Shown here piece after piece: positions 4,461-22,559 of a stretch of DNA of 64,000 nt (position 1 is the first letter of the stretch; every line of letters starts with the position of its first letter). Below the pieces are notes generated by a model. The model was not told where the DNA came from. It saw only the letters and a program-made list of their open reading frames with translations, and searched no databases. The DNA is from Trypanosoma brucei (taxonomy: Eukaryota): assembly GCA_000002445.1 (NCBI GenBank), contig CM000208.1, positions 1,536,001 to 1,600,000 on the forward strand, read 5' to 3'. A program made the position numbers and the translations under genes.

Positions 4461-4914
4461 TCTCTGTTCTCCCTTCTTGTCTTCTTTGCCCACCTTCAAG
4501 TCTCCAACGTGATGACAATCATCAAAATAAATAAATAGAGAAGTCAAAACATATAACATTTTCTTCTCCCTTAACCCGAATTCCACTTGCCTCTTATTTT
4601 ATTATAGGAACCCTTATAAAGACAGACAAACACACTCATTTATTCACTCAATTCTAACGCATAACTCTCACATGTATATATGCGTGTGAACTAACTATTC
4701 GTCACCACTTAAAAACTAAACGCCTAAAAAAAAAAAAGATGATGCTACTACCCAAAATTGCTAAAAAGGGCACCACAAGTCATTTTCCTAATAACTATGG
4801 CACCACTATAATACGAATAAAAAAAATAGGGAGCGGAGGGAGGGGGTCATGACTGTGTGTGCTGACATTTCTAGCATGTTGTCACACGATGACATACACC
4901 CACACACGCATACA

Positions 4915-4972
4915 TCTATATATATATATATATATATATATGTGGGTGGGTGTGTGTGTGGGTGTGTGTATG
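4915..4972. repeat. Compound microsatellite: (TA)n followed by (GT)n/(GGGT)n
   Basis: 'tatatatatatatatatatatatatg' is followed immediately by 'tgggtgggtgtgtgtgtgggtgtgtgtatg'. Confidence 0.9.
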
Positions 4973-5824: not shown

Positions 5825-7066
5825 TTACCGGTACGAGTAACTACGTAACCACTGTGGTGAGAATGTCCCTTCACCCCCAGTGGCGGAGTCCTGAACAGAA
5901 TCTCCATTATTTCCTAATGTAAAGGAAACAGAGACACCATCAGTGGCAGAACTGTCATTCCCAGCGACGGCAAGTTGATGAAGCAATCCAGCGAATATTT
6001 GCGCGGGATCCTCCTCGTTTTGCCCCTCCTGCGGGGCGTTCTGCAAACTACTCGGGTCACGGAATACCGCAGTCTTGTGGTCAAGAAGGTCTGACGAATC
6101 GCTTTGGCTGGTCATCGTATACTTTGGAGATCTATCACGCTCATCCACTACATTGTTGATCTCATTAAGTAATGGAAGAGGTATCATATCACGTTCACTC
6201 AACTCCGCTTCCTGACGTCTGCCACCTCGGTGCTGCCTTAACTTAGCATCATCTAATACACCCTTCTCCATGAAATAATGCGGAACCCGCAATGCGGAGA
6301 ATAGCTTAGGACAACACTCACGAAAAACCGCGCCAAGTAATCCCCTCAATTCACGAAAGCCCCGCTCCCCAGGCGCCGCCAAGTCGTCCCCAAGCGTCGG
6401 TGTCCAATCAACAGGGTATGGCGCCTGCAACGAATTCATGGTAGAAGAGTCATCGATGGAAGGAGATGACAGTTGAGTCTCCCGTACGGCTACTGAGCCC
6501 CCTTTGGTAGCGTTTTCTTTTAAGCTACAGCCGCTGCTCATATCCTCCATGCCAACTGCTGGTGGTCCCATCCCATGCGTGTCTCTGCGCGATGCCGCTG
6601 CACCCCCTGTCGCTACATGCATTCTGCCAAAAAATGCCCGCGGCCACAGAAAATCGATGGGAAGGGGACATGAAATGTCCACAGGCACCGCCGCGCACCT
6701 TTCTGTTGACTGAAAAGAACTCTTGCTTGTACTGCCCACGGCAAGAGGAGGAAAAGCGACAGCTGCCGGATCTGCAAGTGTAAAAGTGCTGTTGCTGCCA
6801 CTTACCGCGTCTTTGTGCGACCGTTCGCAAGTTGATGTACCTTGCTGGGGCGTACTCCCCCCAACGTCGTTGCTTTGCGCGGAACTTCTTGAAAGGATGG
6901 CGCGCTGGTACGAAGTTTGAGAGACAATATTTAACCAATCACCGCCTCCAGCGATTTCCACGCCGCCGGTGGCTGCTCTCTCAGGTGGCCCATTTTTCCT
7001 TTGCTTGGAAGTACCGCAGCCGCTTCGCATTAGGGGGTAACCATTGTAAGGACCACCGTTGTTCAT
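5825..7066 (-). CDS. Hypothetical protein, about 413 aa, Ser/Gly/Ala-rich, no recognisable domain
   Basis: Minus-strand ORF 5825..7174. The track start at 7174 is TTG. The first in-frame ATG is at 7066 ('cat' at 7064-7066, MNNGGPYNGY...). It is co-oriented with the array. Confidence 0.5.
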   Translation of the reverse strand: MNNGGPYNGYPLMRSGCGTSKQRKNGPPERAATGGVEIAGGGDWLNIVSQTSYQRAILSRSSAQSNDVGGSTPQQGTSTCERSHKDAVSGSNSTFTLADPAAVAFPPLAVGSTSKSSFQSTERCAAVPVDISCPLPIDFLWPRAFFGRMHVATGGAAASRRDTHGMGPPAVGMEDMSSGCSLKENATKGGSVAVRETQLSSPSIDDSSTMNSLQAPYPVDWTPTLGDDLAAPGERGFRELRGLLGAVFRECCPKLFSALRVPHYFMEKGVLDDAKLRQHRGGRRQEAELSERDMIPLPLLNEINNVVDERDRSPKYTMTSQSDSSDLLDHKTAVFRDPSSLQNAPQEGQNEEDPAQIFAGLLHQLAVAGNDSSATDGVSVSFTLGNNGDSVQDSATGGEGTFSPQWLRSYSYR

Positions 7067-7755
7067 GGATGATGATGGCCCGCGCTTCCTAAAACTGTTG
7101 GTAGACCTCTGGAAGAACAATTCTTCGAAATGATTTGTTTTCTCTCTTGAACTCTGCTTTTCTCCGCTTATCAACTAAGTAATGATAAGCGACTTCTTTA
7201 AAAAAAAAAAAAAGAGGCACAGCGGGCAGCAAAAAAAGCGAAGGTATTAAGATGTTTGTTCACTTGGACAGTTACGTTGTCACGGATTTATTGCATCGTT
7301 GCCTGTGGTGGTGCCGTCTTCTTCTCCCTCTCCTCCTGTTATGTCCTCCTGTTGTATTTGACGGTATCGTATATTCCATCCTTCCCCCTTCCCACACATA
7401 AACTTTTTCTTTTTCCAACATGCAACATCAATACGAAACAGAATGAAACACACGTGAATAAAAGCGCAGAAGCGATATCCACAACATAGCATGAAGCGCT
7501 TGTGCTCGTACTGAGATAAAAGCGCACTTAACAACAAAGTGCATGGAAGAAGAACAAGACTAAGCAAACCTATTCACACGCACAGAGAGTGACATATGCA
7601 CACATACGGAAAGTACAAATAGAACTCTTCGCTGAATGTGCCCACAAATGCAAAAAAAAATGAGGGTAAATATGGAGGTAAAGGCTATGTAAATAAATAA
7701 ACCGAGAACCGAATTTTATGTACGCGTGTGCACATTGTAACCCTCGATAGACCTT

Positions 7756-8784
7756 TCACTGAAGCATGCCTGCGTTGGCCCATTCGACTGCAGCCGCACT
7801 ATTAGTTGGTTTTGCCTCATCCCACGGTCCATTGATTTGATCTTTCATGCTGCCATGCAATTTGACGAAGAAGAATGGAATGACAACAGATATTACCACC
7901 ACCACTACACAGTACAGAAGGGCAAATACCGGAACCTCCATCAAGAAGTAGATGGCAAGCGCACATATAGTGAATGTTAACACAACATGTGCCCTTAGGG
8001 AGACATGTTTGAGGTTATGTCTGGGAATAGGAGACAAAGTGAAGCATAGAATTCCAAACATAATGAGTGCACCGCTCTGAAACACCCTCTGAATGCGTGA
8101 GGCAATAAGTATTATGCCGAATGTGGCTGCATTCACCGCAGTGTTCTGCTGATACCTCTCCGAATAGCAGTTGAGGTAATTATAATCCGTCAGAAGCACA
8201 TGCACGAACATTGACAAGGAACTAAGTGTCACAATGGTGTCATTGCTATACGCCACAGTCAAGGTTTGTAGGACGGGTGACAGAAGAATAAGGACCCCCA
8301 CCAGTGGAATGCCTTGCCTACACAACCCCATCAAGTAATGCGTAAACGGTGTGGGAATCTCACCGCGATCAACAGCCTGCTGCCGCTGCACCACAATACA
8401 AAACACAAACGCCAACGTGAATAGTGTAGCATTCACCCACATGAGCGCGCACTCATCCACCCTCCCGGAAAGCATCATAGAAAATACAAAGAGATAGAAC
8501 ACAACAAACGAAAATTGCTGAATAACAACAAATGTGTCCAACACCACCTTGTTATACTCATAGGTGGCAACATTCACATTCTGCCGTAGGTCCTGAAGGA
8601 ACTGCTGAGGATCCACATAGTTGTCTTCATACGGCTGACGCGTGTACAACACTTTGCGCCAAACGCGCCCCTCATCACGCACTGTCGCTGTTTCAGTTGA
8701 CACGCTCCCAATAGTACCACGTGGCTGTGCTGCCTCTCCCATCGCTGACGTTTCTCGCAACGAAGCCGGCTGACAATTGCGCAT
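7756..8784 (-). CDS. GPI2: Phosphatidylinositol N-acetylglucosaminyltransferase subunit C (PIG-C / GPI2), a multi-pass membrane protein in the first step of GPI-anchor synthesis, 342 aa
   Basis: Strong similarity, recalled from memory, to PIG-C. 'RVWRKVLYTRQPYEDNYVDPQQFLQDLRQN...VVIQQFSFVVFYLF' matches human '[29 protein letters not shown]...VVIQQLCSVCVFVV'. The C-terminal 'INGPWDEAKP' matches 'IHGPWDEAEI'. Several hydrophobic transmembrane segments are present. The track start at 8823 is TTG; the first ATG is at 8784 ('cat' at 8782-8784). Confidence 0.8.
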   Translation of the reverse strand: MRNCQPASLRETSAMGEAAQPRGTIGSVSTETATVRDEGRVWRKVLYTRQPYEDNYVDPQQFLQDLRQNVNVATYEYNKVVLDTFVVIQQFSFVVFYLFVFSMMLSGRVDECALMWVNATLFTLAFVFCIVVQRQQAVDRGEIPTPFTHYLMGLCRQGIPLVGVLILLSPVLQTLTVAYSNDTIVTLSSLSMFVHVLLTDYNYLNCYSERYQQNTAVNAATFGIILIASRIQRVFQSGALIMFGILCFTLSPIPRHNLKHVSLRAHVVLTFTICALAIYFLMEVPVFALLYCVVVVVISVVIPFFFVKLHGSMKDQINGPWDEAKPTNSAAAVEWANAGMLQ

Positions 8785-9488
8785 CCAAATAGAGGGCAAC
8801 AGAAACAACAGTAACAACGGCAACGGCTATGGCAACAGCAATGGCGCCAAAGAACTTAGTAAGCAAATGGTATAATAAATAATTATAAGTTAACAATTCT
8901 ACATGCGCTGAAACGAACTAAAGTGAGCGGTTGAAGAATGAAGAAATCATGGGAAAGGTAGACACACATCCGCAAAAACAGAGACATTAAGGAGGAAGCC
9001 AGCGCAGAAGCGCAACATCACGCATTTTCAAGCGCAGTGCCTACTTATTTTTAAAAAAGAAGTGTAAAAAGTTTTCAAGTGAAAGCCACTGCACCCCATT
9101 ACCCGCCTCACTTCCTACCTTTCTACATTTCTTTGTAAATATGTGCCCCACTAAACCATATACATATTGATATGCACAACACTTCTGCGATCCCTCGCGC
9201 ACGGTGGTCGAGTGGAGGGTCATCAACCAATCGGTGACGACACACTCAGGGAAGGGGGTGAAAGGCAATAAAATACAGTGGAAATAATAAGCAAACACAA
9301 CCACACGATCCGAGCAAACCTGCGAGACTTCCCCTCAACCGCACTAACTTCTCGCATTACTTGGGTAACTCCCTTTTTGATTATACTTTGTTCTGGGATC
9401 GTAACCCCTCTTATTGCTACAGCGGCAACAGCAGCAGCAAACATATATCTGTAATTTCTTCGACGTGTAGGAAATAACCCCGTTGTCC

Positions 9489-9796: not shown

Positions 9797-12700
9797 TTAC
9801 GGTGGTGCATCCACTTTCGACCCCAAGCAGAGAAGTGATAAATATCCATGAGTCGAACCACACACCACTGCCTGGGGATTGCTGGAGTGGCACGCACAGG
9901 AAGAAATGGTATCACCGGTAGCGGGTAATGGGCACTGTACTGACTTCAAAACGTTAAGGTGAAATGCGTGCATAAAGTGAAGAATACCACGGGAATCCTC
10001 CGATGCACTGGTGTTTGTTAGCGGAGCCGTCGAAACAAGAACAGTCTGTTTAGGTGTAGTGCACCACCCGGTAATACGACCGGGGGCGGATACAGAGCGG
10101 AGCAAAACACCATTGATGCTTATCTGATGAATCACGTTATCAATTGTGGACGTAAAAAGAATATTCGGTAAATAGCAATTCGGTTGGATAAGCACACGGT
10201 CGATAGGGAGCTTTGCGGGATGGCGCAGACTGCGCTCCAAACGATTATTCGCCAAGCTATGAAGCATAAGCATGCCATCCCGACTTGCAGTAGCGACAAC
10301 GTCGAGGATGGGGCACACACTTACTGCAGTGGGGTCGTCCTCATGACCGTATACTGTAAACATCAAATCCACGCGCAGCTTCAAGCGGTTGCGCTGGAAG
10401 TGGCAACTCCACACAATAAAAGTCGTGTCCTCCGCACCGCTCACAAGGTATCTGCTGTCCGCACTCGCCGCAACAAGTACCACGCGGCCACAGTGGGCGT
10501 GTAGCCGCTCCTCCTGGAAAGCTGGGGTCGTTAAAAAGTTACGAATGACTATTGTGTTATCAAAAACGCCCCCGAGCGCTACAAACACTTCATTGTCAAG
10601 GAGCAAAACAGCCACATTCCCCGTCTCACAGGGACCACCAGCCTTCTGACCAATGTTCGGTATCATGCCGGGTGGAAGCGGTGGAATTCGCCGCTCAAAA
10701 TCTTCGGCCACGTCGACGATCGGCCGTCGGAAGCCACTGCCGTCCACCGAGCCCTGTGGCACGGGTGCCGCCGGCGCTCCTGAAACGATTCCAAGTAAAT
10801 ATGAGGATGTGTGAGCAACGGCAGCCGCCACAGAAGGGGCAGGGGTCTGATTACTAAAATGGCTTTTAACGTTGCCATCGGCGACAGGACCAACCCTAGG
10901 CGTCGTCAACGTCGGAGTTACCGCGGGGCTCGGCAGTTGCTGCATACGCCTCATCACTGGCGAAACACTAATTCGGTAGAGCAGTGCGGCACCGTTCCCA
11001 CACACCACGAGCACCCGATCATTGTCAAGCACCACCACGCGCGCCACGCGCGTGCACAAGTGGCGAATGTCAACTGCCCTCATGCCAAGCACGCAACTGA
11101 TAGGGTCAGCATATTCCATGGCACGCCGCTCAACATGAGGGCGGGTGAAAAGTTGAATGGGTGTCTGGCCAATGTTATCGAGCGAGTCGATCAGCAGCCG
11201 CTCATCTACATCATCTGTTTGACTCCTGTCTAGATCTTCGTAAGAATGCCAATTAAAGACATTAAGTGCTGCGATGGCCTCCTTGCCCCTTTGTTTGTAT
11301 CCAAATATCAAATCGATCCAATGGTGTAAGTTCAGTGAAACGTAATCACTCTCAAGGGCTTCCCTCATGCGGTAAACAAACTCGTAGGGATCACCATGGG
11401 CCCACGGTGGCAACTCCAGTGAATCTGTGGGTCGGCCGTCTTGTCTGCACCCAAACCGGATTCCATTTGTATTTACACACATTTCGGGCAGGTAGAACAA
11501 CTCTGGAATGAGCTCGCGGACATCCTGCGAGTTCGTCAGCACCCCATTCCAACATGACGCCAAGGAGTGAAACATTCGGTCGGCACAATCAAAGTGCCCA
11601 TCTTGCAGGATAACCTGCAGCGTTGTGAACGGCTCGACGCGGATCATGTAATACAGGACAACTGCTGGAGAGCTGTAATGTGTGAAGTAATGGGCAGGCA
11701 CGTCACCAGTTTGTCGCATTTCTTCATACCGTGTTTCCACGTACTCGCGACTCTGAGGTCCATTGCAAATCCCTATGGGCAACGACAAGTCACGAAACGT
11801 GGAGGATTTCTCCAAATCAAGTCGGTCACTCTTGTAGTCGGCAATCACCCAGGGGAATACGGGGTACTGCGTAAGATCATTCACCGTCCGGCCACCAAAG
11901 AAATTCAACCAGAGAAGGTATTCAAAGTTAGATATCTTGTGTTCGCGCCACTGATTCGTGCGACACATAAGGAGTGGCTCCTTACGTGGGGTCTCATGAA
12001 ACAGGTAGAACGGGTGGTAGGGCACCTTGTGTCGCTCCACCGACATTCTTATGCGGTTTACAGCTGTCCGCATTTCCTTCACGGAAGCAAAATTCAGCAG
12101 CACACTGCGACCATCGCGGAACCACATTTCTACTGCACTACGCCTCATTCGAAACCGCCTCCCTGGCGCAAGCTGAGCGATATGACCAGTGGGATAGATA
12201 ATGTCCCGCGGCTTTACAACTAGCGACGATGCTTCATCAGCAACACGTTGGTTGTATGCTTTATTCTCGTCGTCAAAGAATACGCAAAGCTCACAGTCAC
12301 GAATAATTAGCATGGCACTCCAGCAGTGCATCATAGAAGGCACCTCACATGAAGAGGAGAAGTGCACGATAGGCTTTGGAGTCTGCGCCGTATTGGTCCC
12401 CGTGATGCTGTTCGTATCTTCGTGGCTAACTTGTTTGTCGAGGATTTCATCGCAGTCCACAGAGCTATCAGACGTAAGCAACATCTGTTCACCGCCTCGT
12501 GCACGAGGTAACTGTTTCCCAAAGACCTTGGTGTCACTTACGGGTGCCCCGGCTGCGGTGATGTTGGCGTGATCAGTTCCACAAGGATCAAACTCAAATT
12601 TCCTCCGTATCAGCAATTTCTGTTCGACATCCTGCAAACGCACATACTTCATGTTCCGCTGCTCCCCAGGCCCAACATCCCAAATAGTACCTCTGCAGCG

Positions 12701-15700
12701 GCTGAGAAATCGAGCCCATACTGTATTGAAAAAAACCGTAGCGACCTCCCGAACTGCTAGTGTTGCGAATCGCTCTGCTGACGACTCCACCCCTCCAGCT
12801 GCATCGTCACCTTCTCCCTCCGTGCCATCCTGCAAGTGCTGCTCCAATACCTCAAGCATTGTCCTTCGTGAAATACTAAAGTCAGTCAATATTCCATGCA
12901 ACCGCGCCATCGTCACACTGTGGTATTGTTCAATGGTGCGTGCCATACTCTTGTCTGTGAGTTGGTCGCGTTCCATCGCCAATGTGCACTGGGAAATGAA
13001 CGCCTCGTAGTCTTCGCGAGAGGCGACTTCAACAAACTCCTTCATGGAGTCCTCTCCCGATCTGCCACAGAGCCATTCAAGTGTGCACTGTTTCACGGTT
13101 TGCTCGCCCACGCTGGAAGGCACAGTTCGACTGAAAAACTGCATCTGGTTCAAGTCACGCTTGTGAAGAATACATATGGCCTTCATACGACGCAGTATCT
13201 CCTGGTTCGCATCCGGAAATCGCAAGGAAGGACCCAACAAAGAAAACCTCAGCCGCCGGTTCAGAAGCTCGTGTAGACTTAGAATGAGTGTCATACAACT
13301 GGAAAGTGGAGAATGCTCCTTCACCTCCGACCACTGCCACATCAACAACGCAAAAGGACTGTAGTCGTTGTCGACGACATCAACCCAACGCAGAGCCAAA
13401 GATAATATGTCGTCTAACTGAGCCGCATCACGGAGTGTAAAACCACACACCACACGGAAAAGACGAACAAAGAGCCGAATAAAACCGCCTTTGCGCGGCC
13501 GCAGTCCCTGCGGCACGGCGTCCGACCCAGGGGCGCTACCTCCATTACCGCTACTACTACTAAAACTGTTATTCCACGTTCCAGTTGAGTTTAGAATGGC
13601 TCCGCTCGTCGTCAGCAGCTGCATTGTGCGCACCGCCAGAGCAGCATGCAACCAAACACCATCAGGTGCGGTGCGCAGCAACATCGAGTCACCAGAAAGA
13701 AATGAAACACCGTTTTGTAGCATCTCATCACGTCGGTATTCACTCCCCTCCGGGTAACCCTCGCAAAACTCAAGCTTCAACATTCCTTCATCGGTAAACA
13801 CAACGAGCTCCTCCTCCTCTGAGTAACCACGTTTGCGATGCGCGTCGGCTGGTCGTGTTGCATCACAGTTAATATACGCGGTCGTGGAGTAGAAGAGAAC
13901 GTCTTCAACGACAGAGAGAAATGCAGTGAAATTTGCTAACGCCAGTTGGCTGCCTAGACTTAGACAGCCGCCGGTATTATCATCCCGGCGATTTGTCAAA
14001 TAAGAAGTGTACTCCTTCACAACACCGAGTAGTACGGCATTCAAGAAGACGTTGGCACGTCGGCGGAAGAGATAAGTTATGAGTAATTCCAGCTCGGACG
14101 CACCGTAAGACTCCTGAATAAGCGCCTGAAATATAGTGCGAGAAAATATAAAAGCAGTTGTTGCCATAAAAAGTGACTGTTCACCCCTCCGTGCTTCAAG
14201 TGACTCGGCATCAGAGAGGTACAACTCTGCGATGCTCGCGTACCACCCTTGCACAGAAAGAATGCTCCTCCACGCTACTGAATCCTGCTGTACTAGAGTG
14301 GCAATATCTGTCATGACCTTCTCCTTCATCACCTTGTTGGGAGTTCTCTTCATCAGCAGCAAGAGTGGCGTCAGAACAGGAGCAAAACAAATTTTATCAT
14401 CGGCTGTTATCGTCACATCCTGCTGAAGGGAGACATCGAAGCGGCCAATGAGGGCGGCAAGTAGAGTTGTGTATAAGGAAACGTCCACAGCGCAATCGTT
14501 CAATTTATCGCGTAACCAGGAAAGAGAGATATCACGGGTGACGTGAACAGCCTCGCGTGATGCAAGTAGCGTCGGATTTAACAGTTCCTGTGTCTTCCGT
14601 GAGCGGCTTGCTAGCAAAATGAAGAACAGCACCACCTCATTCCGCACCTCCCGCGGCGAGTTGTTCAAAGCAGGCAAAAGATCTTTGACAAAGTTCCTCT
14701 TTCCCAAGAAGGAGGCTAGGTTAGGCTCCCTGTTTGCAACAAGAACACGTGTGCGCACAAGTATTTCTATAAGCACGTCCCGGTGTAAATCCTGCTTACG
14801 AAGCATCACGCTCACGAGACGTTGAATGGCATCTGCATCATTCATCGTGAGACCACCCTCCATAACAGCCTCCATCAGGAGGAAGAACCCCTCTCGCATC
14901 TCCCGATGATGCTCCGAGGTTCCATTGTACGTCTGCATTATTTGACCAACAACAAAGTGAGGCAGGTCCAAACCGCGCAGGTGACGTCGCGCCGGGGCGT
15001 TATTATGGCAAAGCAAATACTGCACTTGAAGTAACAACAGTTGTGTCGGCTCCGAGCAAACATGGAGGAGATCACCCGATAAAAACAGGGAATGATACGC
15101 CGCGTCGAATAGTGCCTCGTCGCTGACAAGTGCGACACAAATATCATACAAACGCCGTGGAAGCTCAGGACAGTCGTATACAGTAAACTGTTGTACAGCA
15201 TGCGAAATCATCGGAAACAAACCAACTTCCAACACATCAGCACGCACAATGTTACTAAGTAGAAGAGCCTCAACAAACTTCAGTAGCTCATTCATCGCCT
15301 TGCGCGTCGCTTCCGAAGCAGGCCTCCTGCGACCAGGAGGCACACGGCAGTAAAAGGGTAGTTGAGGGTTTACAAGAAGAACGAGTAGCGGAATCACAAC
15401 GGTTTGAAGTGCCCCAAGAACACATACCGAGTCCATGATACTTTTTGTATTACAAGCAACGGTTCCCTCGTACGTGATCAGGGGCCGTTCTGTAGGTTTT
15501 CCACGCAGTAAGGCGGCCAGATTGTGTAATTGTCCACGCTCTCCGAAGCGAGGGTCGACATAGACAGCAATACCAGAGAAAAAACCACGCCTTACGCTTT
15601 CACCACCCGACTTCTCTAAGAACAGCTCCAACACTGACTTTGGGGAGAGGGCACATGTGAAGAAATGCACAGCAGCCACTTGACCAACAAAATTGTTGCT

Positions 15701-18700
15701 AGATGTACGCTGCTCAATATCCTCGCCGCGCGTGCCAACGTGGAAAAACAAGCCTTGCAATTGGGGGTACCTTACGGATGGCTGGGCGCAAACCTCCACA
15801 CCGTTCACAAACACAACAAACTCACTTGCACTGAATGGGAACTTCGATTGACTATGCACAACCGTTAAGTGCGTCCAAACCAGCGCCGCCAGCTGGCAAC
15901 CAAGGTCTACCTCAGTAGCTTTGTTGTGTTCAACATCATAAGATACGGCCAACTGTCCATTACTTTTTACAACCAGTTCTAATATGGTACGTTTCTCAAT
16001 ACTCTGAAGAGAATAAATACATTGCCGAGTCCGTCGACCGCCATGAGTCTCCAACCTTATCCACAGGCACAAAGTGTATGCATCGAGGGGAAAATCTGAA
16101 AGAATGGCCTTGAGGCCAGTTGGTCCGTTGTGCTGACGAAACGCTATGTAATTCTGCTGCGTCGCCTGGCAATTTAGTATGTGACGAGAGGCGGCGCTCA
16201 GCACCTCAATCACAATGGGAACTAGAAATCGTCGTTCTTCCTCGCTCTTTGCGTGTGCAATGCTCATAAGAAACTGCTTTGTCTCCCGAACGGTGACGTG
16301 ATGACCAGCAATGGCCATGACGAGGGACAACACTGAATCAATAAGTGCAGTCCCTGCCACCACTGGGATAAGGGCAGTAAGCGAATCAAACACACCGGCA
16401 TTCGCCACCATCCACAGGGAACTCTGCGACACCATGACATCGGACGAAAGGCGCGTCACAAGACACTGCAGTGCGTCACGGTGATCCTCCTTAAATTCAG
16501 GTAGATCCAGGAAGAGTCTCAATAGAGGCAAAAGTAACTCAGGATTACGCACCGTTAACGTGCCCTCCTCCCCGCCCACAACTGAACGGCGACCATCCAA
16601 ACCATTATCAAACCCACAGGATGGCCCTACACTTCCAACCGCTGCACTAACATGAGCCTCATCATCCTCATACACGAGCAAAAGCATACACCGGATAAAC
16701 TGCAGCCACGATCCGTTATGCGATGTAAACCATGCGGTCTTGAATGACTCCACCAGTTGATCAGCGCCAATGGTGTGAATGAGAACGGCACGCAGTGGTG
16801 GATTCTCCTTAACAAGCATGACAACGGTGTTCATGATACACGAGAGACCGTAAGACGAATCAACAACACGCCACGGTGCGGCTGTCCGGTGGAACAGACG
16901 GAGAAAAGCATCCATTGCGTTTTCCTTACCACCACAGAGGGCGTTCTGCAACTGCCTCATTGACCCCCACTGAAAAATGTCAGATCGAAGCGCACTAAGA
17001 GAGGCCGACATGCAATTCAGCACTGACAAAAACATCTCTTCGTCTTCATTATCTGCCTCACACCCTGACTCCAAACGGGCACATTTATCAAGAGCATCCC
17101 AAGTACACTTAACTAACTGATCCATCCGCTGTGTATATTCTGCATCGGGACAACTGTGTGTGTAAAGTAAAAGAAGCATCCGCTTCGCATTCGGGCGTAT
17201 TTCCTTCACAGAGAGAAGTGAAAAAAAAATATCCACCTCGCCCATTAACACACTGCACTGAACATCCAATCTTTGCAAAAGCCGCAATAACAAATGCAGC
17301 ACTAGCATACTAATTCCATCGCCTGATAGCCTACCGGACGTGTAACATTCCCTCAACAAACCCACAAGTTTCGAAATACCACCACATCTGATGACGGCAG
17401 TTGCGACAGCATCACTATTTGTCCCACACAAAGAGGAATGGAATATCACACATAACTTTAGTAACACATCCGCCAATTCCTCCTGCCGCGCCACTACCCC
17501 TCCCCTGTTTTGCTTTTCGTTATCATCGCCGGCGCCCGCAGCCTCACCTTCCACTGACTCAGTGGGCTGTTCCCCAACTTTTATGCTGCAAAGTAAGTCG
17601 AGAATGAGGCCAACTTCATTCTCGATGGCTGCACCCCCATCACTGCTCTCTGCCTTGGGAGGAAGAGAGTTCAGCCTGTGGTGTAGTAAATACAATACTG
17701 CGTGCTGCAACCGCGGATCTTTCTGGAAAACCCCAAAGACTGGATTAAGAAAAACGACGCGGTAAAAATCCGCGTCTACTAACGATCCTGCGGTATTCAC
17801 CTGCCGCCGCTCTTGCACCGGGGTTTCCATCGGTGCCAGAGAGTTTATGGCGTATTTCATCAACGCATCATACAAACAAGAGGTGGGCGCAAGTGCGTCT
17901 CCGGAATGAAGAAGGGCCTCGAGGAGAGAGAATTCCATTTGCATAAAGTGGCGCGCTGCCTCGAGGTCACGATGCACCTCCGCCGTCCTTCTCACCTCCC
18001 GCTGTGTCTCCAGTAAACCGAGATAGCAATGTAAAAACTCGTCTACAACCGCGTTGTCTGCGAGTCGAGTAAAAGCGGGTCGTTTGAGGCTAACCACACA
18101 ACCGGAATCCAAATGCAAACCGTCGTTACCCGCATCAGCCAAGGTGCGTAGCTCGCGTGCACACTCCTGACCCGCAATGCGGCACCCATCACAGTGCACA
18201 CAATGATATCTAACACTTATTACTTGCAACAACCGCACCACGTTTGCAGAAAAATTCACAGAATTCATAGCCTTAACAACAAGCAACGGGGACTCTCGCA
18301 GCAATCTGGAAAGAAGCAACATGCTACACGAAGCTTGACGCAAGGTTTGCAGCTCTGAATCTCCGGTGCGCTCCACAGCCACAAAATGGGTTAACTCAGC
18401 GCCGATACTGATGAGCGAGTTCCGCACTACAAGCTCACTGGGGTTACGTAGAAGGCTAAGTACAACGAGCGGCAAGTTACAGAGAGCTTCAGATATCGTC
18501 CTCTCTTCTTCCCCTCCCCTTTCGACCGACCCAATAGCTACTTCCGAACAGTGTAAACAAAGTCGACTACACTCCAACAAGATACCATCACGTTTGGTGT
18601 GGGTTCTCAGTGTACTCCCACTGGTGCTTCCCTTTCTTTCTTCGGCTGGGCAAGAACGTTTATGCATCTCCGCGTACAAACTATCCGGCCGCAGACGCAC

Positions 18701-19522
18701 CCACCCCTTCGCTAACTGACTATTCGATATTCCGGTGGCATTGCCCATGTCAGAATAAACGCCCGCTTCACCGGGTGACGGCCGCTTCGAGGGTCCGCAA
18801 CGAACGTACACAACTTTTAAAACCCGCAAAGTGTCGCGCAAGATGGTCAACAATTCACGGTACCGTATTTCAGTTGCCCTCGGAGGTTCGCAGCTGTCAA
18901 AGCATGTTCTCGTAGCAGTAACAACGTCTTCATCACCCCCGCCTTCAGAGTATTCTAGGGGGATGTCATCTGATGGATCCAGGGGTGTGGACACGTTTCC
19001 TGCAGCGCTATCACTCACTTGATGCGAAACCGAACTTCCTCCCATCTTCTCGTCACTTAATGCTTGACGAAGAAACTGAAGGATGTGAAGCATATGCCTA
19101 TCAAACCCTAGCTCGAGCATAAGGAGCCCAACTTTGAGTGGGTTCACTAATAAAGCCGCCTCGAGAACCGGTATAGAGTCTCGTAAAAAATTAATCTTCG
19201 CCGTGTCACCAAGTTTGGTGCATGCATACTCCAAACGCTTCAACATTAGCGACAACATCTTCGCCGGAAGCTGCCTGCATGCGCCATTTGATTGAATCAA
19301 TCTCAGTACCGACAGTTCAAGGCCAGTATCCGATGACAGGGGGTATGGGAAGGATGACTTGGACCCGCTACTAACCAGCCGCTCCAACTCATCCTTCACC
19401 TCTGAGGCCGCAGAATGGTTTAGAAACACTCTGTACTCCGCCTCATGTTCATCTTTGCGTTTGGTATCCCTGCAGGGAGCCATACTTCTCCCCACGACAA
19501 ATGTGTCGAGGAACTTGAACAT
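9797..19522 (-). CDS. Giant BEACH-domain protein (LYST/LRBA/neurobeachin-like) with a ConA-like lectin region, PH-BEACH module and C-terminal WD40 repeats; 3241 aa in a single exon
   Basis: Canonical BEACH signatures 'TQYPVFPWVIADYKSDRLDLEKSSTFRDLSLPIG', 'LIDSLDNIGQTPIQLF' and 'FNWHSYEDL' sit in the C-terminal third, roughly nt 12300-11400. WD-repeat signatures ('SGAEDTTFIVW', 'TASRDGMLMLHSL') follow near the C-terminus. The upstream region resembles the ConA-like/LamG domain of LRBA-type proteins. The track start at 19537 is GTG; the first ATG is at 19522 (MFKFLDTF...). Confidence 0.9.
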   Translation of the reverse strand: MFKFLDTFVVGRSMAPCRDTKRKDEHEAEYRVFLNHSAASEVKDELERLVSSGSKSSFPYPLSSDTGLELSVLRLIQSNGACRQLPAKMLSLMLKRLEYACTKLGDTAKINFLRDSIPVLEAALLVNPLKVGLLMLELGFDRHMLHILQFLRQALSDEKMGGSSVSHQVSDSAAGNVSTPLDPSDDIPLEYSEGGGDEDVVTATRTCFDSCEPPRATEIRYRELLTILRDTLRVLKVVYVRCGPSKRPSPGEAGVYSDMGNATGISNSQLAKGWVRLRPDSLYAEMHKRSCPAEERKGSTSGSTLRTHTKRDGILLECSRLCLHCSEVAIGSVERGGEEERTISEALCNLPLVVLSLLRNPSELVVRNSLISIGAELTHFVAVERTGDSELQTLRQASCSMLLLSRLLRESPLLVVKAMNSVNFSANVVRLLQVISVRYHCVHCDGCRIAGQECARELRTLADAGNDGLHLDSGCVVSLKRPAFTRLADNAVVDEFLHCYLGLLETQREVRRTAEVHRDLEAARHFMQMEFSLLEALLHSGDALAPTSCLYDALMKYAINSLAPMETPVQERRQVNTAGSLVDADFYRVVFLNPVFGVFQKDPRLQHAVLYLLHHRLNSLPPKAESSDGGAAIENEVGLILDLLCSIKVGEQPTESVEGEAAGAGDDNEKQNRGGVVARQEELADVLLKLCVIFHSSLCGTNSDAVATAVIRCGGISKLVGLLRECYTSGRLSGDGISMLVLHLLLRLLQRLDVQCSVLMGEVDIFFSLLSVKEIRPNAKRMLLLLYTHSCPDAEYTQRMDQLVKCTWDALDKCARLESGCEADNEDEEMFLSVLNCMSASLSALRSDIFQWGSMRQLQNALCGGKENAMDAFLRLFHRTAAPWRVVDSSYGLSCIMNTVVMLVKENPPLRAVLIHTIGADQLVESFKTAWFTSHNGSWLQFIRCMLLLVYEDDEAHVSAAVGSVGPSCGFDNGLDGRRSVVGGEEGTLTVRNPELLLPLLRLFLDLPEFKEDHRDALQCLVTRLSSDVMVSQSSLWMVANAGVFDSLTALIPVVAGTALIDSVLSLVMAIAGHHVTVRETKQFLMSIAHAKSEEERRFLVPIVIEVLSAASRHILNCQATQQNYIAFRQHNGPTGLKAILSDFPLDAYTLCLWIRLETHGGRRTRQCIYSLQSIEKRTILELVVKSNGQLAVSYDVEHNKATEVDLGCQLAALVWTHLTVVHSQSKFPFSASEFVVFVNGVEVCAQPSVRYPQLQGLFFHVGTRGEDIEQRTSSNNFVGQVAAVHFFTCALSPKSVLELFLEKSGGESVRRGFFSGIAVYVDPRFGERGQLHNLAALLRGKPTERPLITYEGTVACNTKSIMDSVCVLGALQTVVIPLLVLLVNPQLPFYCRVPPGRRRPASEATRKAMNELLKFVEALLLSNIVRADVLEVGLFPMISHAVQQFTVYDCPELPRRLYDICVALVSDEALFDAAYHSLFLSGDLLHVCSEPTQLLLLQVQYLLCHNNAPARRHLRGLDLPHFVVGQIMQTYNGTSEHHREMREGFFLLMEAVMEGGLTMNDADAIQRLVSVMLRKQDLHRDVLIEILVRTRVLVANREPNLASFLGKRNFVKDLLPALNNSPREVRNEVVLFFILLASRSRKTQELLNPTLLASREAVHVTRDISLSWLRDKLNDCAVDVSLYTTLLAALIGRFDVSLQQDVTITADDKICFAPVLTPLLLLMKRTPNKVMKEKVMTDIATLVQQDSVAWRSILSVQGWYASIAELYLSDAESLEARRGEQSLFMATTAFIFSRTIFQALIQESYGASELELLITYLFRRRANVFLNAVLLGVVKEYTSYLTNRRDDNTGGCLSLGSQLALANFTAFLSVVEDVLFYSTTAYINCDATRPADAHRKRGYSEEEELVVFTDEGMLKLEFCEGYPEGSEYRRDEMLQNGVSFLSGDSMLLRTAPDGVWLHAALAVRTMQLLTTSGAILNSTGTWNNSFSSSSGNGGSAPGSDAVPQGLRPRKGGFIRLFVRLFRVVCGFTLRDAAQLDDILSLALRWVDVVDNDYSPFALLMWQWSEVKEHSPLSSCMTLILSLHELLNRRLRFSLLGPSLRFPDANQEILRRMKAICILHKRDLNQMQFFSRTVPSSVGEQTVKQCTLEWLCGRSGEDSMKEFVEVASREDYEAFISQCTLAMERDQLTDKSMARTIEQYHSVTMARLHGILTDFSISRRTMLEVLEQHLQDGTEGEGDDAAGGVESSAERFATLAVREVATVFFNTVWARFLSRCRGTIWDVGPGEQRNMKYVRLQDVEQKLLIRRKFEFDPCGTDHANITAAGAPVSDTKVFGKQLPRARGGEQMLLTSDSSVDCDEILDKQVSHEDTNSITGTNTAQTPKPIVHFSSSCEVPSMMHCWSAMLIIRDCELCVFFDDENKAYNQRVADEASSLVVKPRDIIYPTGHIAQLAPGRRFRMRRSAVEMWFRDGRSVLLNFASVKEMRTAVNRIRMSVERHKVPYHPFYLFHETPRKEPLLMCRTNQWREHKISNFEYLLWLNFFGGRTVNDLTQYPVFPWVIADYKSDRLDLEKSSTFRDLSLPIGICNGPQSREYVETRYEEMRQTGDVPAHYFTHYSSPAVVLYYMIRVEPFTTLQVILQDGHFDCADRMFHSLASCWNGVLTNSQDVRELIPELFYLPEMCVNTNGIRFGCRQDGRPTDSLELPPWAHGDPYEFVYRMREALESDYVSLNLHHWIDLIFGYKQRGKEAIAALNVFNWHSYEDLDRSQTDDVDERLLIDSLDNIGQTPIQLFTRPHVERRAMEYADPISCVLGMRAVDIRHLCTRVARVVVLDNDRVLVVCGNGAALLYRISVSPVMRRMQQLPSPAVTPTLTTPRVGPVADGNVKSHFSNQTPAPSVAAAVAHTSSYLLGIVSGAPAAPVPQGSVDGSGFRRPIVDVAEDFERRIPPLPPGMIPNIGQKAGGPCETGNVAVLLLDNEVFVALGGVFDNTIVIRNFLTTPAFQEERLHAHCGRVVLVAASADSRYLVSGAEDTTFIVWSCHFQRNRLKLRVDLMFTVYGHEDDPTAVSVCPILDVVATASRDGMLMLHSLANNRLERSLRHPAKLPIDRVLIQPNCYLPNILFTSTIDNVIHQISINGVLLRSVSAPGRITGWCTTPKQTVLVSTAPLTNTSASEDSRGILHFMHAFHLNVLKSVQCPLPATGDTISSCACHSSNPQAVVCGSTHGYLSLLCLGSKVDAPP

Positions 19523-20363
19523 CCTCCAGTCAAACACTAAATGAAACTAAGACAGTCAGACTGTGCACCGACAACGAAACCACTAAATTTTTCCCGTACC
19601 TCTCCCTTTCTGGTACAGTTCCCCCTCCCACCGCGATATACGCAATAATACTTGTACTTGCTTACCTCCTACCTATGGTTTCTTTCACACCGCCTTCCCT
19701 TCTTCCACTCTCGCGAAGGTGCGTGTATGCTGCCTTTCCTTTATTATTATTATTATTTGTTCTTTCGCACTCCTTCTCGCTAAGTGTGTTTGAGCAAGGG
19801 TGACCACTCCGTCTCCAGTCACCTTAACCGCATACACAGAGCGCCTTTTGAAGCGGGCAAACAGAAGCCAAGAAAGTAAATTTGGAATAAAGGGAGGAAA
19901 ACTTAAAACATACTCGGGAACAAATCCGCAGGAAGCAGGGTGAAACAGTAGGAAACACAGAAAGGACAAAGAAAGTGTAACACATCAAAAGAAGGAGAAA
20001 CGCCGCCAACAAAGCAGAAACAACATAATTTTCCGCACGCGGAGAGGCGAGGAATAGCGCCAAAATAATGGCAGTGGCTAGTTGCCGCTCAACATGCCAC
20101 ACTTTGATGGCACAGTTCACAATAGTGAAGTTGAGACGTGCACGCAAAAAAATTACAAGCGACGGCACCAATCAGTGAGCGTCACTTTCTGCTCGCACCA
20201 GCACCCCCCCCCACCGCCAACCTTGTACCACGCGCATACACATAGTGAATACAACACAAAGTGGCACTTCCACATATGCGAATGAGAGCGCGGCTTCGAA
20301 GTAGTCACCGATGAAAAGAAAGAAAGAACAACCGCGAAGACTCCCATTCCCGAGATATTGGTG

Positions 20364-22559
20364 TCATTCACGTCGTTCCTGCGGTTGTTGCCGAATGGTG
20401 TCGGCCTCTGCCAACAGTTCATCCATGCGCGACCGCACAGGACCCATAATAGCGTTCCTTATTGAAGCGTGAGTAATAAATATCGTGAGCAATTCCTCCT
20501 GGTCGGCAAGCAATCGACGGGCACATTCCACAGCGGGTTCAACCGCACCGGGTGCTTTTCTCGCAATCCCAATCAGCGGGGATGATGCCGCAGTAAGTAT
20601 CGCCTGTGCAGCACGTTCCGTGCAGAGTTTGATCTCACTCTCTACATCTTTCTTGGACTCCCGCGACGACTGCACAATCTCCAACCGGCGCAAAGCGATT
20701 TTTGAAAGGTCAATTCCCTTCTCCACCACGATGATATTCTCGTCGATAAGCGAAAGCTCGTCACGGAGGTGAAGCAGATGCCTCAGTTGACACAGAATAC
20801 CCTTCAACGGGGCATGCTCGACAGCTTGCTGCCCAACCAACTTAGACAGCTCCTGCACTTGGAGTAGTGTGCAGTTGATGGCCTCCTCCGCAAACACGGA
20901 AAAAATAGGAAACTCCAGTGATGGATAGAGAAGTTGCAGAAGTGTTACGCAGTTCGTAAGTGCAGGAATGTACGTGTCACTCGCTGATGCTTCATGATTG
21001 AGGAACTGCTGTGCTGCATCTCTTGTCAAGGTGTACTGTGAAATAGAATGACGCAAGAAAACACTAGTGCGGAATACCAGTCGCTCCTGTGTATCCTGAA
21101 TCATTTTGGTAAGGAGGCCGCTCAACTCCGCTGAACTATACTGCTTAGCGCTCGCCCGCTGTATCTCTTCAATTGTCTGAGCCAATACCTCCAGGTCATC
21201 CACCTGCAGCAAATGTGAACGAAATACGTGGTACTCTTCCCCGGAAATGTCAGAGACGATTTGAGGAAAAAGGCGAGCACTGAAATCTTCACGAAGCCAA
21301 ACGCCGTCAAAAACCTCTTTCTCATGCTCCAAAGCAAGTTTCATCATCCCTACAAGATGACCGACGAACTGTGGGACGGTTTTGTTTCCCTCTTTAACGC
21401 TCCCGCCACTGGTTCCACACATCATTTCCAGCCAGTTTTTCAGCACAGGGCCAATGATAAGAACACGGGCATCACGATAAGTGTCAAAAATGTCATCATC
21501 ATTTGTCTCTTCAAACGGTTGACGGCCGCCGCCGTGCGCCTCCATCAAACGCCGTAAGGAAGCCTTCTCGTTCAGTCTGGCGCAGAAAACATTGTCAACG
21601 CTAGCAAGCATACCCGCCATCAAGTGATGTGCTGATGTCATATCACCGCCAAGTACCGCTTGAAGGAGCATCACAAGGGGGTTGCTGCCAGTATCCACAC
21701 TCGGAGTAACTGTTTCCTGTCCCTCCTGATGTCGTTGCTGATTGCCGTAGAAAATAGAACGATAGACATCAGCAGACAGGGTGCAATTTTGAGCGGTGCG
21801 TATGGAAAAAATAATGGCATCCTTTAAGCACTGATAAGCTTGTTGGTACGCCGCAGCAAGCTTCGTCGTGTACGCTTTCGTCGATAGGAACTGGGGGTGG
21901 CATGTGAGAAACTGCATCTCCTCTTCCATCTCTTGCAATATGCTGGAGTAACGTTGCGACGTCGCTGACAGGGTCTGTTGTTCTACCTCTCTCACTAAAG
22001 CATCAATATGCGAAAAGTGTTTGATCATGCGTTGAAGTTCCTCCTGCACCATCTCAAGCCGGGCTTTGCGCACCATTAATTCGGACGCGTTGCTGCTGAG
22101 TTTGTTGCTTTGTTCCTGCACAGCTACCGTCACACCTCGCATTGAATCCAAACAGTCAACCAAGCCCTTGAGGACTCTAAGGCACCGCTCCCCCATCTGC
22201 CTTCCGTGTCTCGCACGTTCCAGCCACTGCTGCAACCCTTCAACGGCAGTTTCGCACCCAGTTCTCGCAACAGCTCGCAGTACCGTCTCGGCAGCAATTT
22301 CGTCGCCTTCGTGCACGCTTCTTCTCACAGCATCACATCCCTTTGAAGCCGCCCCCATTGAAACCGACCGCCGTTGCGAAAGGGAAGGAAAAGAGCGCCC
22401 GCACCACGGATCGCCTTCCAATGGAACACCAGGCCCACCTGTCGCGTAGCTAATGGGCAAAGCGTGCTGGAATGACTTCGACAAAGGCGCTAGCGAAATG
22501 TCTAAAAGACGCGAGAACTCTGCATCAGTAAGCATCTCGGCGTCAAAAGAGGTGCACAT
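20364..22559 (-). CDS. Hypothetical conserved protein, 731 aa, helical and coiled-coil-rich; possibly a vesicle-tethering-complex-like subunit (very tentative)
   Basis: Uninterrupted minus-strand ORF with a true ATG at 22559 ('cat' at 22557-22559). Leu/Glu/Gln-rich predicted helices. No diagnostic motif recognised. Confidence 0.55.
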   Translation of the reverse strand: MCTSFDAEMLTDAEFSRLLDISLAPLSKSFQHALPISYATGGPGVPLEGDPWCGRSFPSLSQRRSVSMGAASKGCDAVRRSVHEGDEIAAETVLRAVARTGCETAVEGLQQWLERARHGRQMGERCLRVLKGLVDCLDSMRGVTVAVQEQSNKLSSNASELMVRKARLEMVQEELQRMIKHFSHIDALVREVEQQTLSATSQRYSSILQEMEEEMQFLTCHPQFLSTKAYTTKLAAAYQQAYQCLKDAIIFSIRTAQNCTLSADVYRSIFYGNQQRHQEGQETVTPSVDTGSNPLVMLLQAVLGGDMTSAHHLMAGMLASVDNVFCARLNEKASLRRLMEAHGGGRQPFEETNDDDIFDTYRDARVLIIGPVLKNWLEMMCGTSGGSVKEGNKTVPQFVGHLVGMMKLALEHEKEVFDGVWLREDFSARLFPQIVSDISGEEYHVFRSHLLQVDDLEVLAQTIEEIQRASAKQYSSAELSGLLTKMIQDTQERLVFRTSVFLRHSISQYTLTRDAAQQFLNHEASASDTYIPALTNCVTLLQLLYPSLEFPIFSVFAEEAINCTLLQVQELSKLVGQQAVEHAPLKGILCQLRHLLHLRDELSLIDENIIVVEKGIDLSKIALRRLEIVQSSRESKKDVESEIKLCTERAAQAILTAASSPLIGIARKAPGAVEPAVECARRLLADQEELLTIFITHASIRNAIMGPVRSRMDELLAEADTIRQQPQERRE

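Follow-up and report, generated by a model that had tools for sequence, protein, structure and literature searches.

Several human diseases of membrane trafficking trace to BEACH proteins: Chediak-Higashi syndrome, gray platelet syndrome and LRBA deficiency (PMC5559528). LYST, the founder of the family and the origin of the database name ‘beige protein’, is a giant BEACH-domain protein (BDCP) with a PH-BEACH-WD40 C-terminus, as are Beige and Dictyostelium LvsB. Human NBEA and LRBA follow a ConA-like/DUF4704/PH-BEACH/WD40 plan, and plant BCHB (Penstemon ‘BEACH domain-containing protein B’, P0003) and a chytrid ‘Neurobeachin-like protein 2’ (P0005), both of ~3,000-3,300 aa, carry their modules in the order solenoid, ConA-like, DUF4704 solenoid, PH, BEACH, WD40. 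Here, we analysed a 64-kb stretch of Trypanosoma brucei DNA (the window) containing Tb927.10.6150, whose product is of similar length and shares both the plan and this module order. Tb927.10.6150 is an ordinary, divergent member of this pan-eukaryotic membrane-trafficking family. The gene and its family assignment have been public since the genome was published and are no discovery; our additions are modest, comprising a corrected domain map, a class placement away from LYST and the limits of the lineage-specific parts.

A minus-strand open reading frame at 9797..19537 of the window runs for 3,246 codons counted from a GTG, with no internal stops. At ~3 stops per 64 codons, the chance of so long an open frame is (61/64)^3246, or ~1e-68. 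The first ATG, at 19522, defines a complete coding sequence at 9797..19522 (minus strand; 3,241 aa plus stop), exactly the span given in a sequence-only reading of this DNA. The translation shows 0 differences over 3,241 residues to the T. b. brucei TREU927 protein EAN78029.1/XP_822857.1 (Q38AZ1)—publicly named “neurobeachin/beige protein, putative”—which bears out T. brucei as the organism. Because the adjoining downstream neighbour, GPI2, is Tb927.10.6140, the BEACH gene is Tb927.10.6150. Met1, within an MFKF/MYRY-type start, is kept in 10/10 aligned orthologues. All ORFs with Pfam matches in the window lie on the minus strand, as expected of a kinetoplastid polycistron, and the description of a single-exon giant agrees with this arrangement. 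Tb927.10.6150 is a real, intact gene. In the searchable literature, the single mention concerns transcript length: the gene is given as neurobeachin/beige protein, with a transcript of >10 kb that spans the whole coding sequence (PMC10048164). We found no functional, localisation or interaction study there, in keeping with the sequence-only description of the protein as little characterised.

The C-terminal part carries the features that define a BDCP, namely a complete BEACH domain, an adjoining PH domain and a C-terminal WD40 propeller. The BEACH-associated PH domain (aa 2386-2498; 12029..12367, minus strand, as are all features of the gene below) is matched by PH_BEACH PF14844 at aa 2392-2491 (E 1.9e-14) and is modelled as a beta-sandwich with a C-terminal helix. 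According to Pfam and the model, it sits immediately N-terminal of the BEACH domain and packs against it. The BEACH domain itself (aa 2523-2799; 11126..11956) matches PF02138 over the complete profile (1-276/276; E 2.7e-110; 368.5 bits against a cut-off of 26.8), and a search of PDB sequences returned neurobeachin 1mi1 (E 9e-85) and LRBA 1t77 (E 1.5e-81). The sequence-only reading had staked itself on a BEACH domain being found at aa 2350-2650; the domain is there, but ~170 aa more C-terminal, with the PH-BEACH unit overlapping the proposed range. Both BEACH motifs that it quoted are present, YPVFPWVIADY at aa 2553 (nt 11834-11866) and LIDSLDNIGQTPIQLF at aa 2777 (nt 11147-11194). BEACH identity among kinetoplastid orthologues amounts to 55-72%. 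In Foldseek comparisons, the predicted PH-BEACH unit superposed on the LRBA crystal structure 1t77 with a TMt of 0.88 and an rmsd of 3.2 Å, and across human NBEA and LRBA the PH-BEACH alignments had 36-38% identity and TMt values of 0.84-0.88.

A seven-bladed WD40 beta-propeller (aa 2812-3233; 9824..11089) completes the protein, its last strand lying 8 residues before the end. The C-terminal AlphaFold model (pLDDT 83, pTM 0.85) contains 28 propeller strands, counted as 7 blades; NBCH_WD40 PF20426 matches at aa 2970-3152 (E 3.7e-16; 59.3 bits against a 50-bit cut-off), and Foldseek aligned it at TMt ~0.7 with seven-bladed propellers, RACK1, G-beta and LIS1 among them. Between blades 1 and 2 lies a Pro/Ala/Ser/Thr/Val-rich insertion of 73 residues (aa 2862-2934; 10721..10939), predicted to be disordered (pLDDT 24-45); it shows the lowest conservation, with 50% alignment occupancy among orthologues.

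Pfam, the PDB sequence search, AlphaFold and Foldseek together recovered the ConA-like, PH-BEACH and WD40 modules that had been read from the letters. The accompanying statement that the N-terminal ~2300 aa hold no recognisable domain beyond the ConA-like stretch does not stand, since mapping of DUF4704 and PF20425 and the AlphaFold model point to solenoids there. The N-terminal model (m2e679094cd0d, overall pLDDT 86) runs in the order solenoid, beta-sandwich, solenoid. Its first part, aa 761-1118 (16169..17242), is all-helical save for a disordered loop at aa 956-985. A Pfam scan of the T. brucei sequence itself gives no match to PF20425 (‘Neurobeachin alpha solenoid’), yet the PF20425 matches in the relatives from Sulcionema, Diplonema and Papus fall on T. 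brucei 758/870-1095, suggesting an equivalent alpha-solenoid. The ConA-like/laminin-G beta-sandwich follows at aa 1125-1288 (15659..16150), with 12 beta-strands in the model and a Laminin_G_3/ConA-like PF13385 match at aa 1143-1297 (E 5.5e-12). Foldseek comparison of the N-terminal model with the PDB matched the helical part to HEAT/ARM solenoids and the sandwich to pentraxin domains (TMt 0.61-0.70); the PDB, the only collection compared, holds no full-length BDCP, and these generic solenoid and pentraxin matches are to be read in that light.

C-terminal of the sandwich, aa 1362-1799 (14126..15439) probably form a DUF4704-type alpha-solenoid. The PF15787 signal is faint in T. brucei (aa 1596-1776; E 0.047; 12.9 bits against a cut-off of 22.9 bits) and rises above the cut-off at collinear positions in Bodo saltans (25.8 bits) and the kinetoplastid P0037 (33.5 bits), while the DUF4704 of Sulcionema maps onto T. 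brucei 1351-1818, where the T. brucei model is helical. The Papus, Diplonema and Sulcionema relatives (diplonemid and prokinetoplastid) bear both PF20425 and DUF4704. Judged by orthologues and predicted structure rather than by direct Pfam matches in T. brucei, the ConA-like domain is flanked by a PF20425-type and a DUF4704-type solenoid. A conserved middle region without a named domain (aa 1800-2385; 12368..14125) links these modules to the PH domain. It is 20-30% identical among kinetoplastid orthologues, and T. brucei ~1800-2028 and 2147-2376 can be aligned in part with relatives from diplonemids, Naegleria and elsewhere; Pfam gave no match within it, with DUF1088 and DUF4800 both undetected. 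The extreme N-terminus is a different matter: aa 1-750 (17273..19522) are only 12-26% identical to non-Trypanosoma orthologues, profile comparison finds similarity to non-kinetoplastid proteins beginning only at T. brucei ~623-747, and when aa 1-760 were compared by hhalign with the N-terminal parts of 10 relatives from outside kinetoplastids, no homology emerged (probability 0.6%). By these alignments, only aa 1 to ~620-750 are without a detectable relative beyond kinetoplastids.

The orthogroup was recovered by an exhaustive HMMER search; homology searches with the full protein or with aa 1-2390 gave only the T. brucei cluster and distant BEACH proteins, and a shorter alignment query matched only a T. 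vivax fragment. Orthologues include T. grayi XP_009309627.1, LmjF.36.1720 and its L. infantum counterpart A4IDE3, Phytomonas CCW66986.1 and Bodo saltans CUG06186.1, collinear with Tb927.10.6150 along nearly the full length as far as Bodo. On sequence comparison, orthologues occur throughout Kinetoplastea, including Bodo, and the closest outside relatives in diplonemids. Identity to kinetoplastid orthologues is 43-62% over the C-terminal 1,142 aa, while conservation is poor across the first ~750 aa and in the propeller insert. The two orthologues scanned with Pfam, those of Bodo saltans and P0037, carry the same modules as the T. brucei protein, and in Leishmania insertions lengthen the orthologues by ~1,100 aa, to 4,367 aa. 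T. brucei subspecies differ by 3 to 16 amino acids, and near-identical full-length copies are present in T. equiperdum, T. b. gambiense and independent Logan assemblies.

To which BEACH class the protein belongs was judged from N-terminal profiles and architecture. Of the phylogeny against the BEACH classes that the sequence-only reading had proposed, a BEACH-only neighbour-joining tree was run; its deep nodes had 0-5% bootstrap and gave no supported sister class, and for this reason it was dropped as a classifier. A kinetoplastid profile of the N-terminal 2,390 aa scored 93-103 bits against plant BCHB, 59 bits against a DUF1088-containing protein, 42 bits against the chytrid NBEAL2-named protein and 20 bits against a ctenophore NBEA/LRBA-type protein. 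The same profile found no match at E ≤ 0.01 to four LYST proteins and none to WDFY3 or WDFY4 (P0010, P0013). Proteins of the P0002/P0004/P0005 type (NBEAL1/2, BCHB) had the best N-terminal profile scores among the labelled classes, in a comparison that included no animal NBEAL1/2 reference, and BCHB/NBEAL-type proteins were likewise the best labelled matches to the full-length protein (346-356 bits). Resemblance to this type is nonetheless bounded: identity outside BEACH is only ~15-18%, the N-terminal 620-750 aa of the T. brucei protein are unmatched, the 73-residue propeller insert is extra, and PF16057 (DUF4800), listed for P0002, P0004 and P0005, is undetected in T. brucei.

DUF1088 (PF06469), located between DUF4704 and PH in NBEA/LRBA and listed for delimiting in the sequence-only reading, was not found by Pfam in T. 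brucei at E ≤ 1. It was equally missing at E ≤ 0.01 from Bodo, P0037, P0040, Papus and Diplonema, and from the best 25 of 29 Sulcionema families, whereas the NBEA/LRBA-type proteins P0012 and P0015 have it. Because this hallmark of NBEA/LRBA is absent, Tb927.10.6150 is not a one-to-one LRBA orthologue. Nor did it show an N-terminus homologous to that of LYST or a tree grouping with LYST/LvsB, and its BEACH scores against LYST are among the weakest of the labelled classes. Taken together, the sequence comparisons are evidence that Tb927.10.6150 belongs with the NBEA/LRBA/NBEAL/BCHB-type proteins and not with LYST; the proposed LYST/LRBA-like ‘clear orthologue’ holds as a BDCP but is drawn too widely.

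We consider it probable that Tb927.10.6150 encodes a canonical BDCP of the class common to NBEA/LRBA, NBEAL1/2 and plant BCHB, acting, by analogy with these proteins, as a cytosolic trafficking scaffold. From what is described for the family (PMC5701936, PMC5559528), and from the biology of LRBA, NBEA and NBEAL2, the product would be a large cytosolic scaffold residing peripherally on membranes. Its PH-BEACH unit and WD40 propeller would serve as binding sites for partner proteins or cargo tails, its solenoids and ConA-like module could provide a docking platform, and all modules jointly might control sorting, fusion or fission, whether of endosomal, post-Golgi or lysosome-related compartments. 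The role at lysosome and acidocalcisomes put forward in the sequence-only reading derives from family membership and may be regarded as one such possibility. A more far-reaching proposal, which we hold to be doubtful, is that the protein represents a euglenozoan lineage of an ancient NBEA/LRBA/NBEAL-type scaffold, in which two parts, the ~700 N-terminal aa peculiar to kinetoplastids and the disordered insert of the propeller, mediate recruitment to lineage-specific compartments, governing the biogenesis or cargo retention of lysosome-related organelles such as the acidocalcisome, or sorting in the endosomal system of the flagellar pocket. If true, the association of BEACH proteins with lysosome-related organelles, known from platelets and melanocytes, would reach back to the base of eukaryotes. 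T. brucei is genetically tractable and early-diverging, and its endocytic system is streamlined and polarised; it could be of use as a BEACH model, and this gene has apparently gone unstudied.

Several other explanations deserve weighing against the trafficking scaffold. Were the protein a LYST/Beige orthologue like Dictyostelium LvsB, it would limit lysosome size via lysosomal fission or fusion. The single lysosome of T. brucei needs some control of its size, giant size and a PH-BEACH-WD40 C-terminus are common to both, and the full-length query matches LYST-like proteins at 218-242 bits; however, the four LYST sequences rank with the weakest BEACH matches, and the N-terminal profile misses all four while matching BCHB, NBEAL2-named and DUF1088-containing proteins. 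The euglenozoan relatives moreover carry PF20425 and DUF4704, two domains that the precomputed Pfam annotation of the four LYST matches does not list. The BEACH tree supports neither direction. We regard LYST orthology as highly unlikely. Equally improbable, in our estimate, is an autophagy adaptor of the WDFY3/ALFY or Bph1 kind, joining cargo to ATG8 and PI3P membranes. The BEACH domain does match fungal Bph1 and WDFY-type proteins well (283-301 bits), and a separate Leishmania BEACH protein, A4I049, has been proposed to carry an LIR. That protein is a paralogue, though, the orthologue being A4IDE3/LmjF.36.1720; Pfam finds no FYVE domain (PF01363), and the N-terminal profile misses WDFY3 and WDFY4 and gives Bph1 only 14-15 bits. 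The LIR-like string EDEEMFLSV at aa 826 was rejected: it occupies model residues 67-75 within a predicted solenoid helix (66-87) and is therefore unlikely to be exposed as a linear motif.

A role in osmoregulation, or at the acidocalcisome or contractile vacuole, as for Dictyostelium LvsA, appears unlikely as well. In favour are the retention of the orthogroup in free-living Bodo, Leishmania and Phytomonas, the precedent of LvsA, which PMC5701936 cites at the contractile vacuole, and the contractile-vacuole proteome of T. cruzi, which lists a ‘neurobeachin/beige protein’, a candidate orthologue. The latter identification consists of one 6-residue peptide with a score of 16, however, and this peptide, EVVENK, is absent from all orthologues examined. 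T. brucei, in which no contractile vacuole is known, still keeps the gene intact. A mainly non-trafficking role would draw on the paraflagellar rod proteome of T. brucei, which includes the BEACH protein PFC10, for a cytoskeletal or flagellar scaffold, or on plant SPIRRIG, a BEACH protein that works in P-bodies (PMC4489804), for a function in RNA granules. PFC10 and Tb927.10.6150 are different genes, Pfam recovers only BDCP modules, with no sequence sign of flagellar targeting or RNA binding, and the architecture is of the trafficking type, so that we consider such a role very unlikely. Lastly, nothing save the extreme length and the low-complexity insert would suggest a decaying or mis-assembled frame, an explanation effectively refuted by the unbroken frame, the full-length near-identical copies in T. 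equiperdum, T. b. gambiense and independent Logan assemblies, the collinear orthologues as far as Bodo, the reported full-length transcript (PMC10048164) and two confidently folded AlphaFold models (pLDDT 86 and 83).

As to the surroundings of the gene, an antisense ORF at 11567-12223 (218 aa) sits within the BEACH-coding region and was treated as spurious, and Rfam and tRNA scans across the 64-kb window gave no matches. Upstream, the ORF at 20364-22559 is a COG3 homologue. The intergenic region between it and Tb927.10.6150 (19523..20363, minus strand) contains long polypyrimidine tracts and is presumed to be a trans-splicing and polyadenylation region.

The ORF listing contains a very long minus-strand frame (9797..19537) whose first ATG, at 19522, opens 3,241 codons plus stop, in exact agreement with the interval 9797-19522 proposed by the sequence-only reading; by our own arithmetic (3 stops per 64 codons), the chance probability of an open frame this long is ~1e-68. 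Both BEACH motifs quoted in that reading are present in the protein (YPVFPWVIADY at aa 2553, LIDSLDNIGQTPIQLF at aa 2777), and a conserved M-[FY]-[KR]-[FY] beginning across aligned orthologues supports the start methionine. The translation shows 0 differences over 3,241 residues from EAN78029.1/XP_822857.1/UniProt Q38AZ1 of T. brucei brucei TREU927 (‘neurobeachin/beige protein, putative’; matching record on a 4.05-Mb contig), and the T. equiperdum and T. b. gambiense proteins differ from it at 3 and 16 positions, respectively. These two (3,242 aa vs 3,241 in TREU927) carry one extra Glu after aa 452 (~18164-18169, minus strand), an in-frame single-codon indel within the poorly conserved N-terminal region. 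In the literature, GPI2 is Tb927.10.6140, and a nanopore transcript of >10 kb with complete CDS accompanies the naming of Tb927.10.6150 as neurobeachin/beige protein (PMC10048164). Given this naming and the position of GPI2 downstream, the BEACH gene is Tb927.10.6150, and it is expressed. Since public databases already annotate it as neurobeachin/beige, the gene was known, and its architecture will not surprise a specialist.

At the C-terminal end of the T. brucei protein, Pfam detected PH_BEACH (aa 2392-2491, E 1.9e-14), the full Beach model (1-276/276; E 2.7e-110) at aa 2523-2799 instead of the previously proposed aa 2350-2650, and NBCH_WD40 (aa 2970-3152; 59 bits vs a cut-off of 50). Neurobeachin (1mi1, 9e-85) and LRBA (1t77, 1.5e-81) were the sole BEACH structures in the PDB copy searched. 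Modelled with AlphaFold from an alignment of 35 sequences (pLDDT 83, pTM 0.85), aa 2380-3241 comprise PH at 2386-2498 and BEACH at 2509-2784, followed at 2812-3233 by 28 predicted beta-strands, counted as a seven-bladed propeller. As the propeller starts at 2812 and a disordered loop separates blades 1 and 2 at aa 2862-2934, blade 1 and this insert fill most of the apparent BEACH-WD40 ‘linker’. In Foldseek, the modelled PH-BEACH unit superposed on LRBA (TMt 0.88, rmsd 3.2 A, 36% identity) and NBEA (TMt 0.84-0.86), and the modelled propeller matched RACK1, G-beta and LIS1 (TMt ~0.7). Within the whole protein, conservation among orthologues is lowest in the Pro/Ala/Ser/Thr/Val-rich insert inside the propeller (10721-10939, minus strand; 11% identity, 50% occupancy), and A2918V within it is one of the few T. 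brucei subspecies differences. A 218-aa antisense ORF within the BEACH-coding region (11567-12223, plus strand) is interpreted as a frame that is open by chance, facing constrained coding sequence.

The N-terminus had been described as lacking domains beyond a ConA-like stretch. Pfam returned this stretch (Laminin_G_3/ConA-like, aa 1143-1297, E 5.5e-12) and a faint DUF4704 (aa 1596-1776, E 0.047; 12.9 bits, below the cut-off of 22.9), which scored above threshold at collinear positions in the Bodo orthologue and in P0037, another kinetoplastid orthologue. In the relatives Papus, Diplonema and Sulcionema, Pfam detected PF20425 (Neurobeachin alpha solenoid) and DUF4704 together with PH_BEACH, Beach and NBCH_WD40; when these proteins are aligned to the kinetoplastid profile, their PF20425 maps to T. 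brucei aa 758/870-1095 and their DUF4704 to aa 1351-1818. Independently, AlphaFold applied to aa 760-1800 with an alignment of 27 sequences (pLDDT 86, pTM 0.79) predicted a helical solenoid at 761-1118, a beta-sandwich at 1125-1288 and another helical solenoid at 1362-1799. Foldseek matched it to pentraxin/ConA-like sandwiches (TMt 0.61-0.70) and HEAT/ARM solenoids in the PDB but to no full-length BEACH-domain-containing protein (BDCP), because the PDB has none. Orthologue mapping and modelling thus argue for solenoids in the supposedly featureless region, and only aa 1 to ~620-750 found no counterpart outside kinetoplastids in profile searches and hhalign: profile matches to non-kinetoplastid proteins begin at aa 623-747, and hhalign of the N-terminal end against the N-termini of ten relatives gave a probability of 0.6%. 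The segment aa 1800-2385 is conserved within the group and contains no domain named by Pfam, with DUF1088 and DUF4800 not detected.

With aa 2100-3241 as query, exhaustive HMMER searching recovered orthologues in T. grayi (62% identity), Leishmania (LmjF.36.1720/A4IDE3, 4,367 aa; 49%), Phytomonas (44%) and Bodo saltans (43%), alongside several further kinetoplastid-like sequences; scores fall from 562 to 427 bits between this orthogroup and the prokinetoplastid Papus and diplonemids Diplonema, Sulcionema and Lacrimia. Full-length phmmer showed collinear similarity from ~aa 760-990 to the C-terminus in every kinetoplastid orthologue, and identity in the global alignment was 12-26% for aa 1-1000, 55-72% for BEACH and 34-53% for the propeller. 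The Leishmania ‘neurobeachin-related’ LIR protein A4I049 is a paralogue.

A neighbour-joining BEACH-domain phylogeny (171 sequences over 277 columns, with 200 bootstraps) joined T. brucei to two other Trypanosoma sequences, P0027 and P0028 (T. grayi), at 99% and recovered an 18-sequence kinetoplastid and diplonemid clade at 71%; every deeper node received 0-5%, so that this domain alone is uninformative on class. The N-terminus, in contrast, does carry class information: a kinetoplastid aa 1-2390 profile matched Sulcionema (189 bits), Diplonema (122), the Malawimonad Gefionella (115), Papus (107), Naegleria (104), plant BCHB (93-103), the DUF1088-containing protein P0012 (59), a chytrid ‘NBEAL2’ (42), a ctenophore NBEA/LRBA-type protein (20) and fungal Bph1 (14-15), and gave no match to four LYST proteins, WDFY3, WDFY4 or a FYVE protein. 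These scores and the absence of FYVE and DUF1088 from the T. brucei protein in Pfam place it in the NBEA/LRBA/NBEAL/BCHB architectural class. By sequence comparison, BCHB/NBEAL-like members appear closest, in a set without an animal NBEAL1/2 reference, and the protein does not appear to be a LYST; it has no strict one-to-one orthology to any human gene testable here. The outline of the sequence-only reading holds; its LYST/LRBA-like class, ‘featureless’ N-terminus and BEACH coordinates do not. We regard identity and class-level architecture as virtually certain.

LRBA rescues CTLA-4 from lysosomal degradation, NBEA acts in receptor trafficking and NBEAL2 in alpha-granule cargo retention. More generally, BDCPs are described as scaffold proteins whose regulation of membrane fusion, fission and sorting depends on their partners, and the PH domains of LRBA and NBEA do not bind phospholipids (PMC5701936). 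From these family roles we infer an adaptor role for Tb927.10.6150, whose product would most likely be cytosolic and peripherally membrane-associated. By analogy, partners or the tails of cargo may dock at the PH-BEACH groove and WD40 propeller, and further factors at the solenoid/ConA platform, with the site of action an endosomal, post-Golgi or lysosome-related compartment. Candidates for interaction surfaces specific to the lineage are the N-terminal region, which is poorly conserved, and the insert in the propeller. An endomembrane-sorting function by such analogy, whatever the compartment, seems somewhat favoured.

A LYST-type regulator of lysosome size would be one alternative, against which speaks the missing LYST match of the N-terminal profile. 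For an ALFY-type autophagy adaptor, the FYVE domain is absent (Pfam) and the sole LIR-like string sits in a predicted helix. For an LvsA-like role in contractile vacuole or acidocalcisomes, the T. cruzi proteome match is one 6-residue peptide, absent from the orthologues compared. A function outside trafficking, like that of PFC10 or SPIRRIG (PMC4489804), is a further alternative. Tb927.10.6150 is an intact, conserved and expressed multi-module scaffold, and a pseudogene or mis-assembly is effectively excluded. A literature search found no functional study of the gene or its orthologues. What value remains lies in a clean, apparently unstudied way into BEACH-protein biology in a divergent eukaryote.

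All window ORFs with a Pfam match lie on the minus strand, as is characteristic of polycistronic units in kinetoplastids. Two trafficking genes adjoin, with a homologue of COG3, subunit 3 of the conserved oligomeric Golgi complex (20364-22559; COG3_N 4e-14, COG3_C 2e-27), directly upstream of the BEACH gene; downstream lies GPI2, a GPI GlcNAc transferase subunit (7756-8823, minus strand; PF06432, 1.8e-76). The genome being polycistronic, these neighbours carry no functional weight. Also on the minus strand are an 864-aa major vault protein homologue (55796-58390; Vault repeats, MVP shoulder domain), an 801-aa XRN-family 5'-3' exoribonuclease (37029-39434; XRN_N 1.5e-86, XRN_M 1.5e-65), which belongs to the XRN paralogues of trypanosomes, and a 690-aa MORN-repeat protein (40564-42636; 1e-65), overlapped on the same strand by a 205-aa ORF (40386-41003) that is probably an out-of-frame artefact. 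In a 403-aa minus-strand protein (44217-45428), the Ras/Roc-type small GTPase domain (Ras family, 3.8e-26) is confined to residues 21-158; the C-terminal extension of ~240 aa has no match, an unusual length for a GTPase of the Ras type. A 1,508-aa minus-strand ORF (22814-27340) had no Pfam match at E <= 0.001, nor did Pfam match those at 308-2455, 5825-7174, 28626-30158, 45839-47584 and 62021-63964; all presumably count among the ‘hypothetical conserved’ proteins of kinetoplastids. Rfam and tRNA scans over the whole window found nothing. Low-GC stretches at 4001-6000, 32001-34000 and 42001-44000 (0.38-0.43 vs ~0.50 elsewhere) coincide with inter-ORF gaps and presumably represent long UTRs or intergenic sequence rich in AT/pyrimidine.
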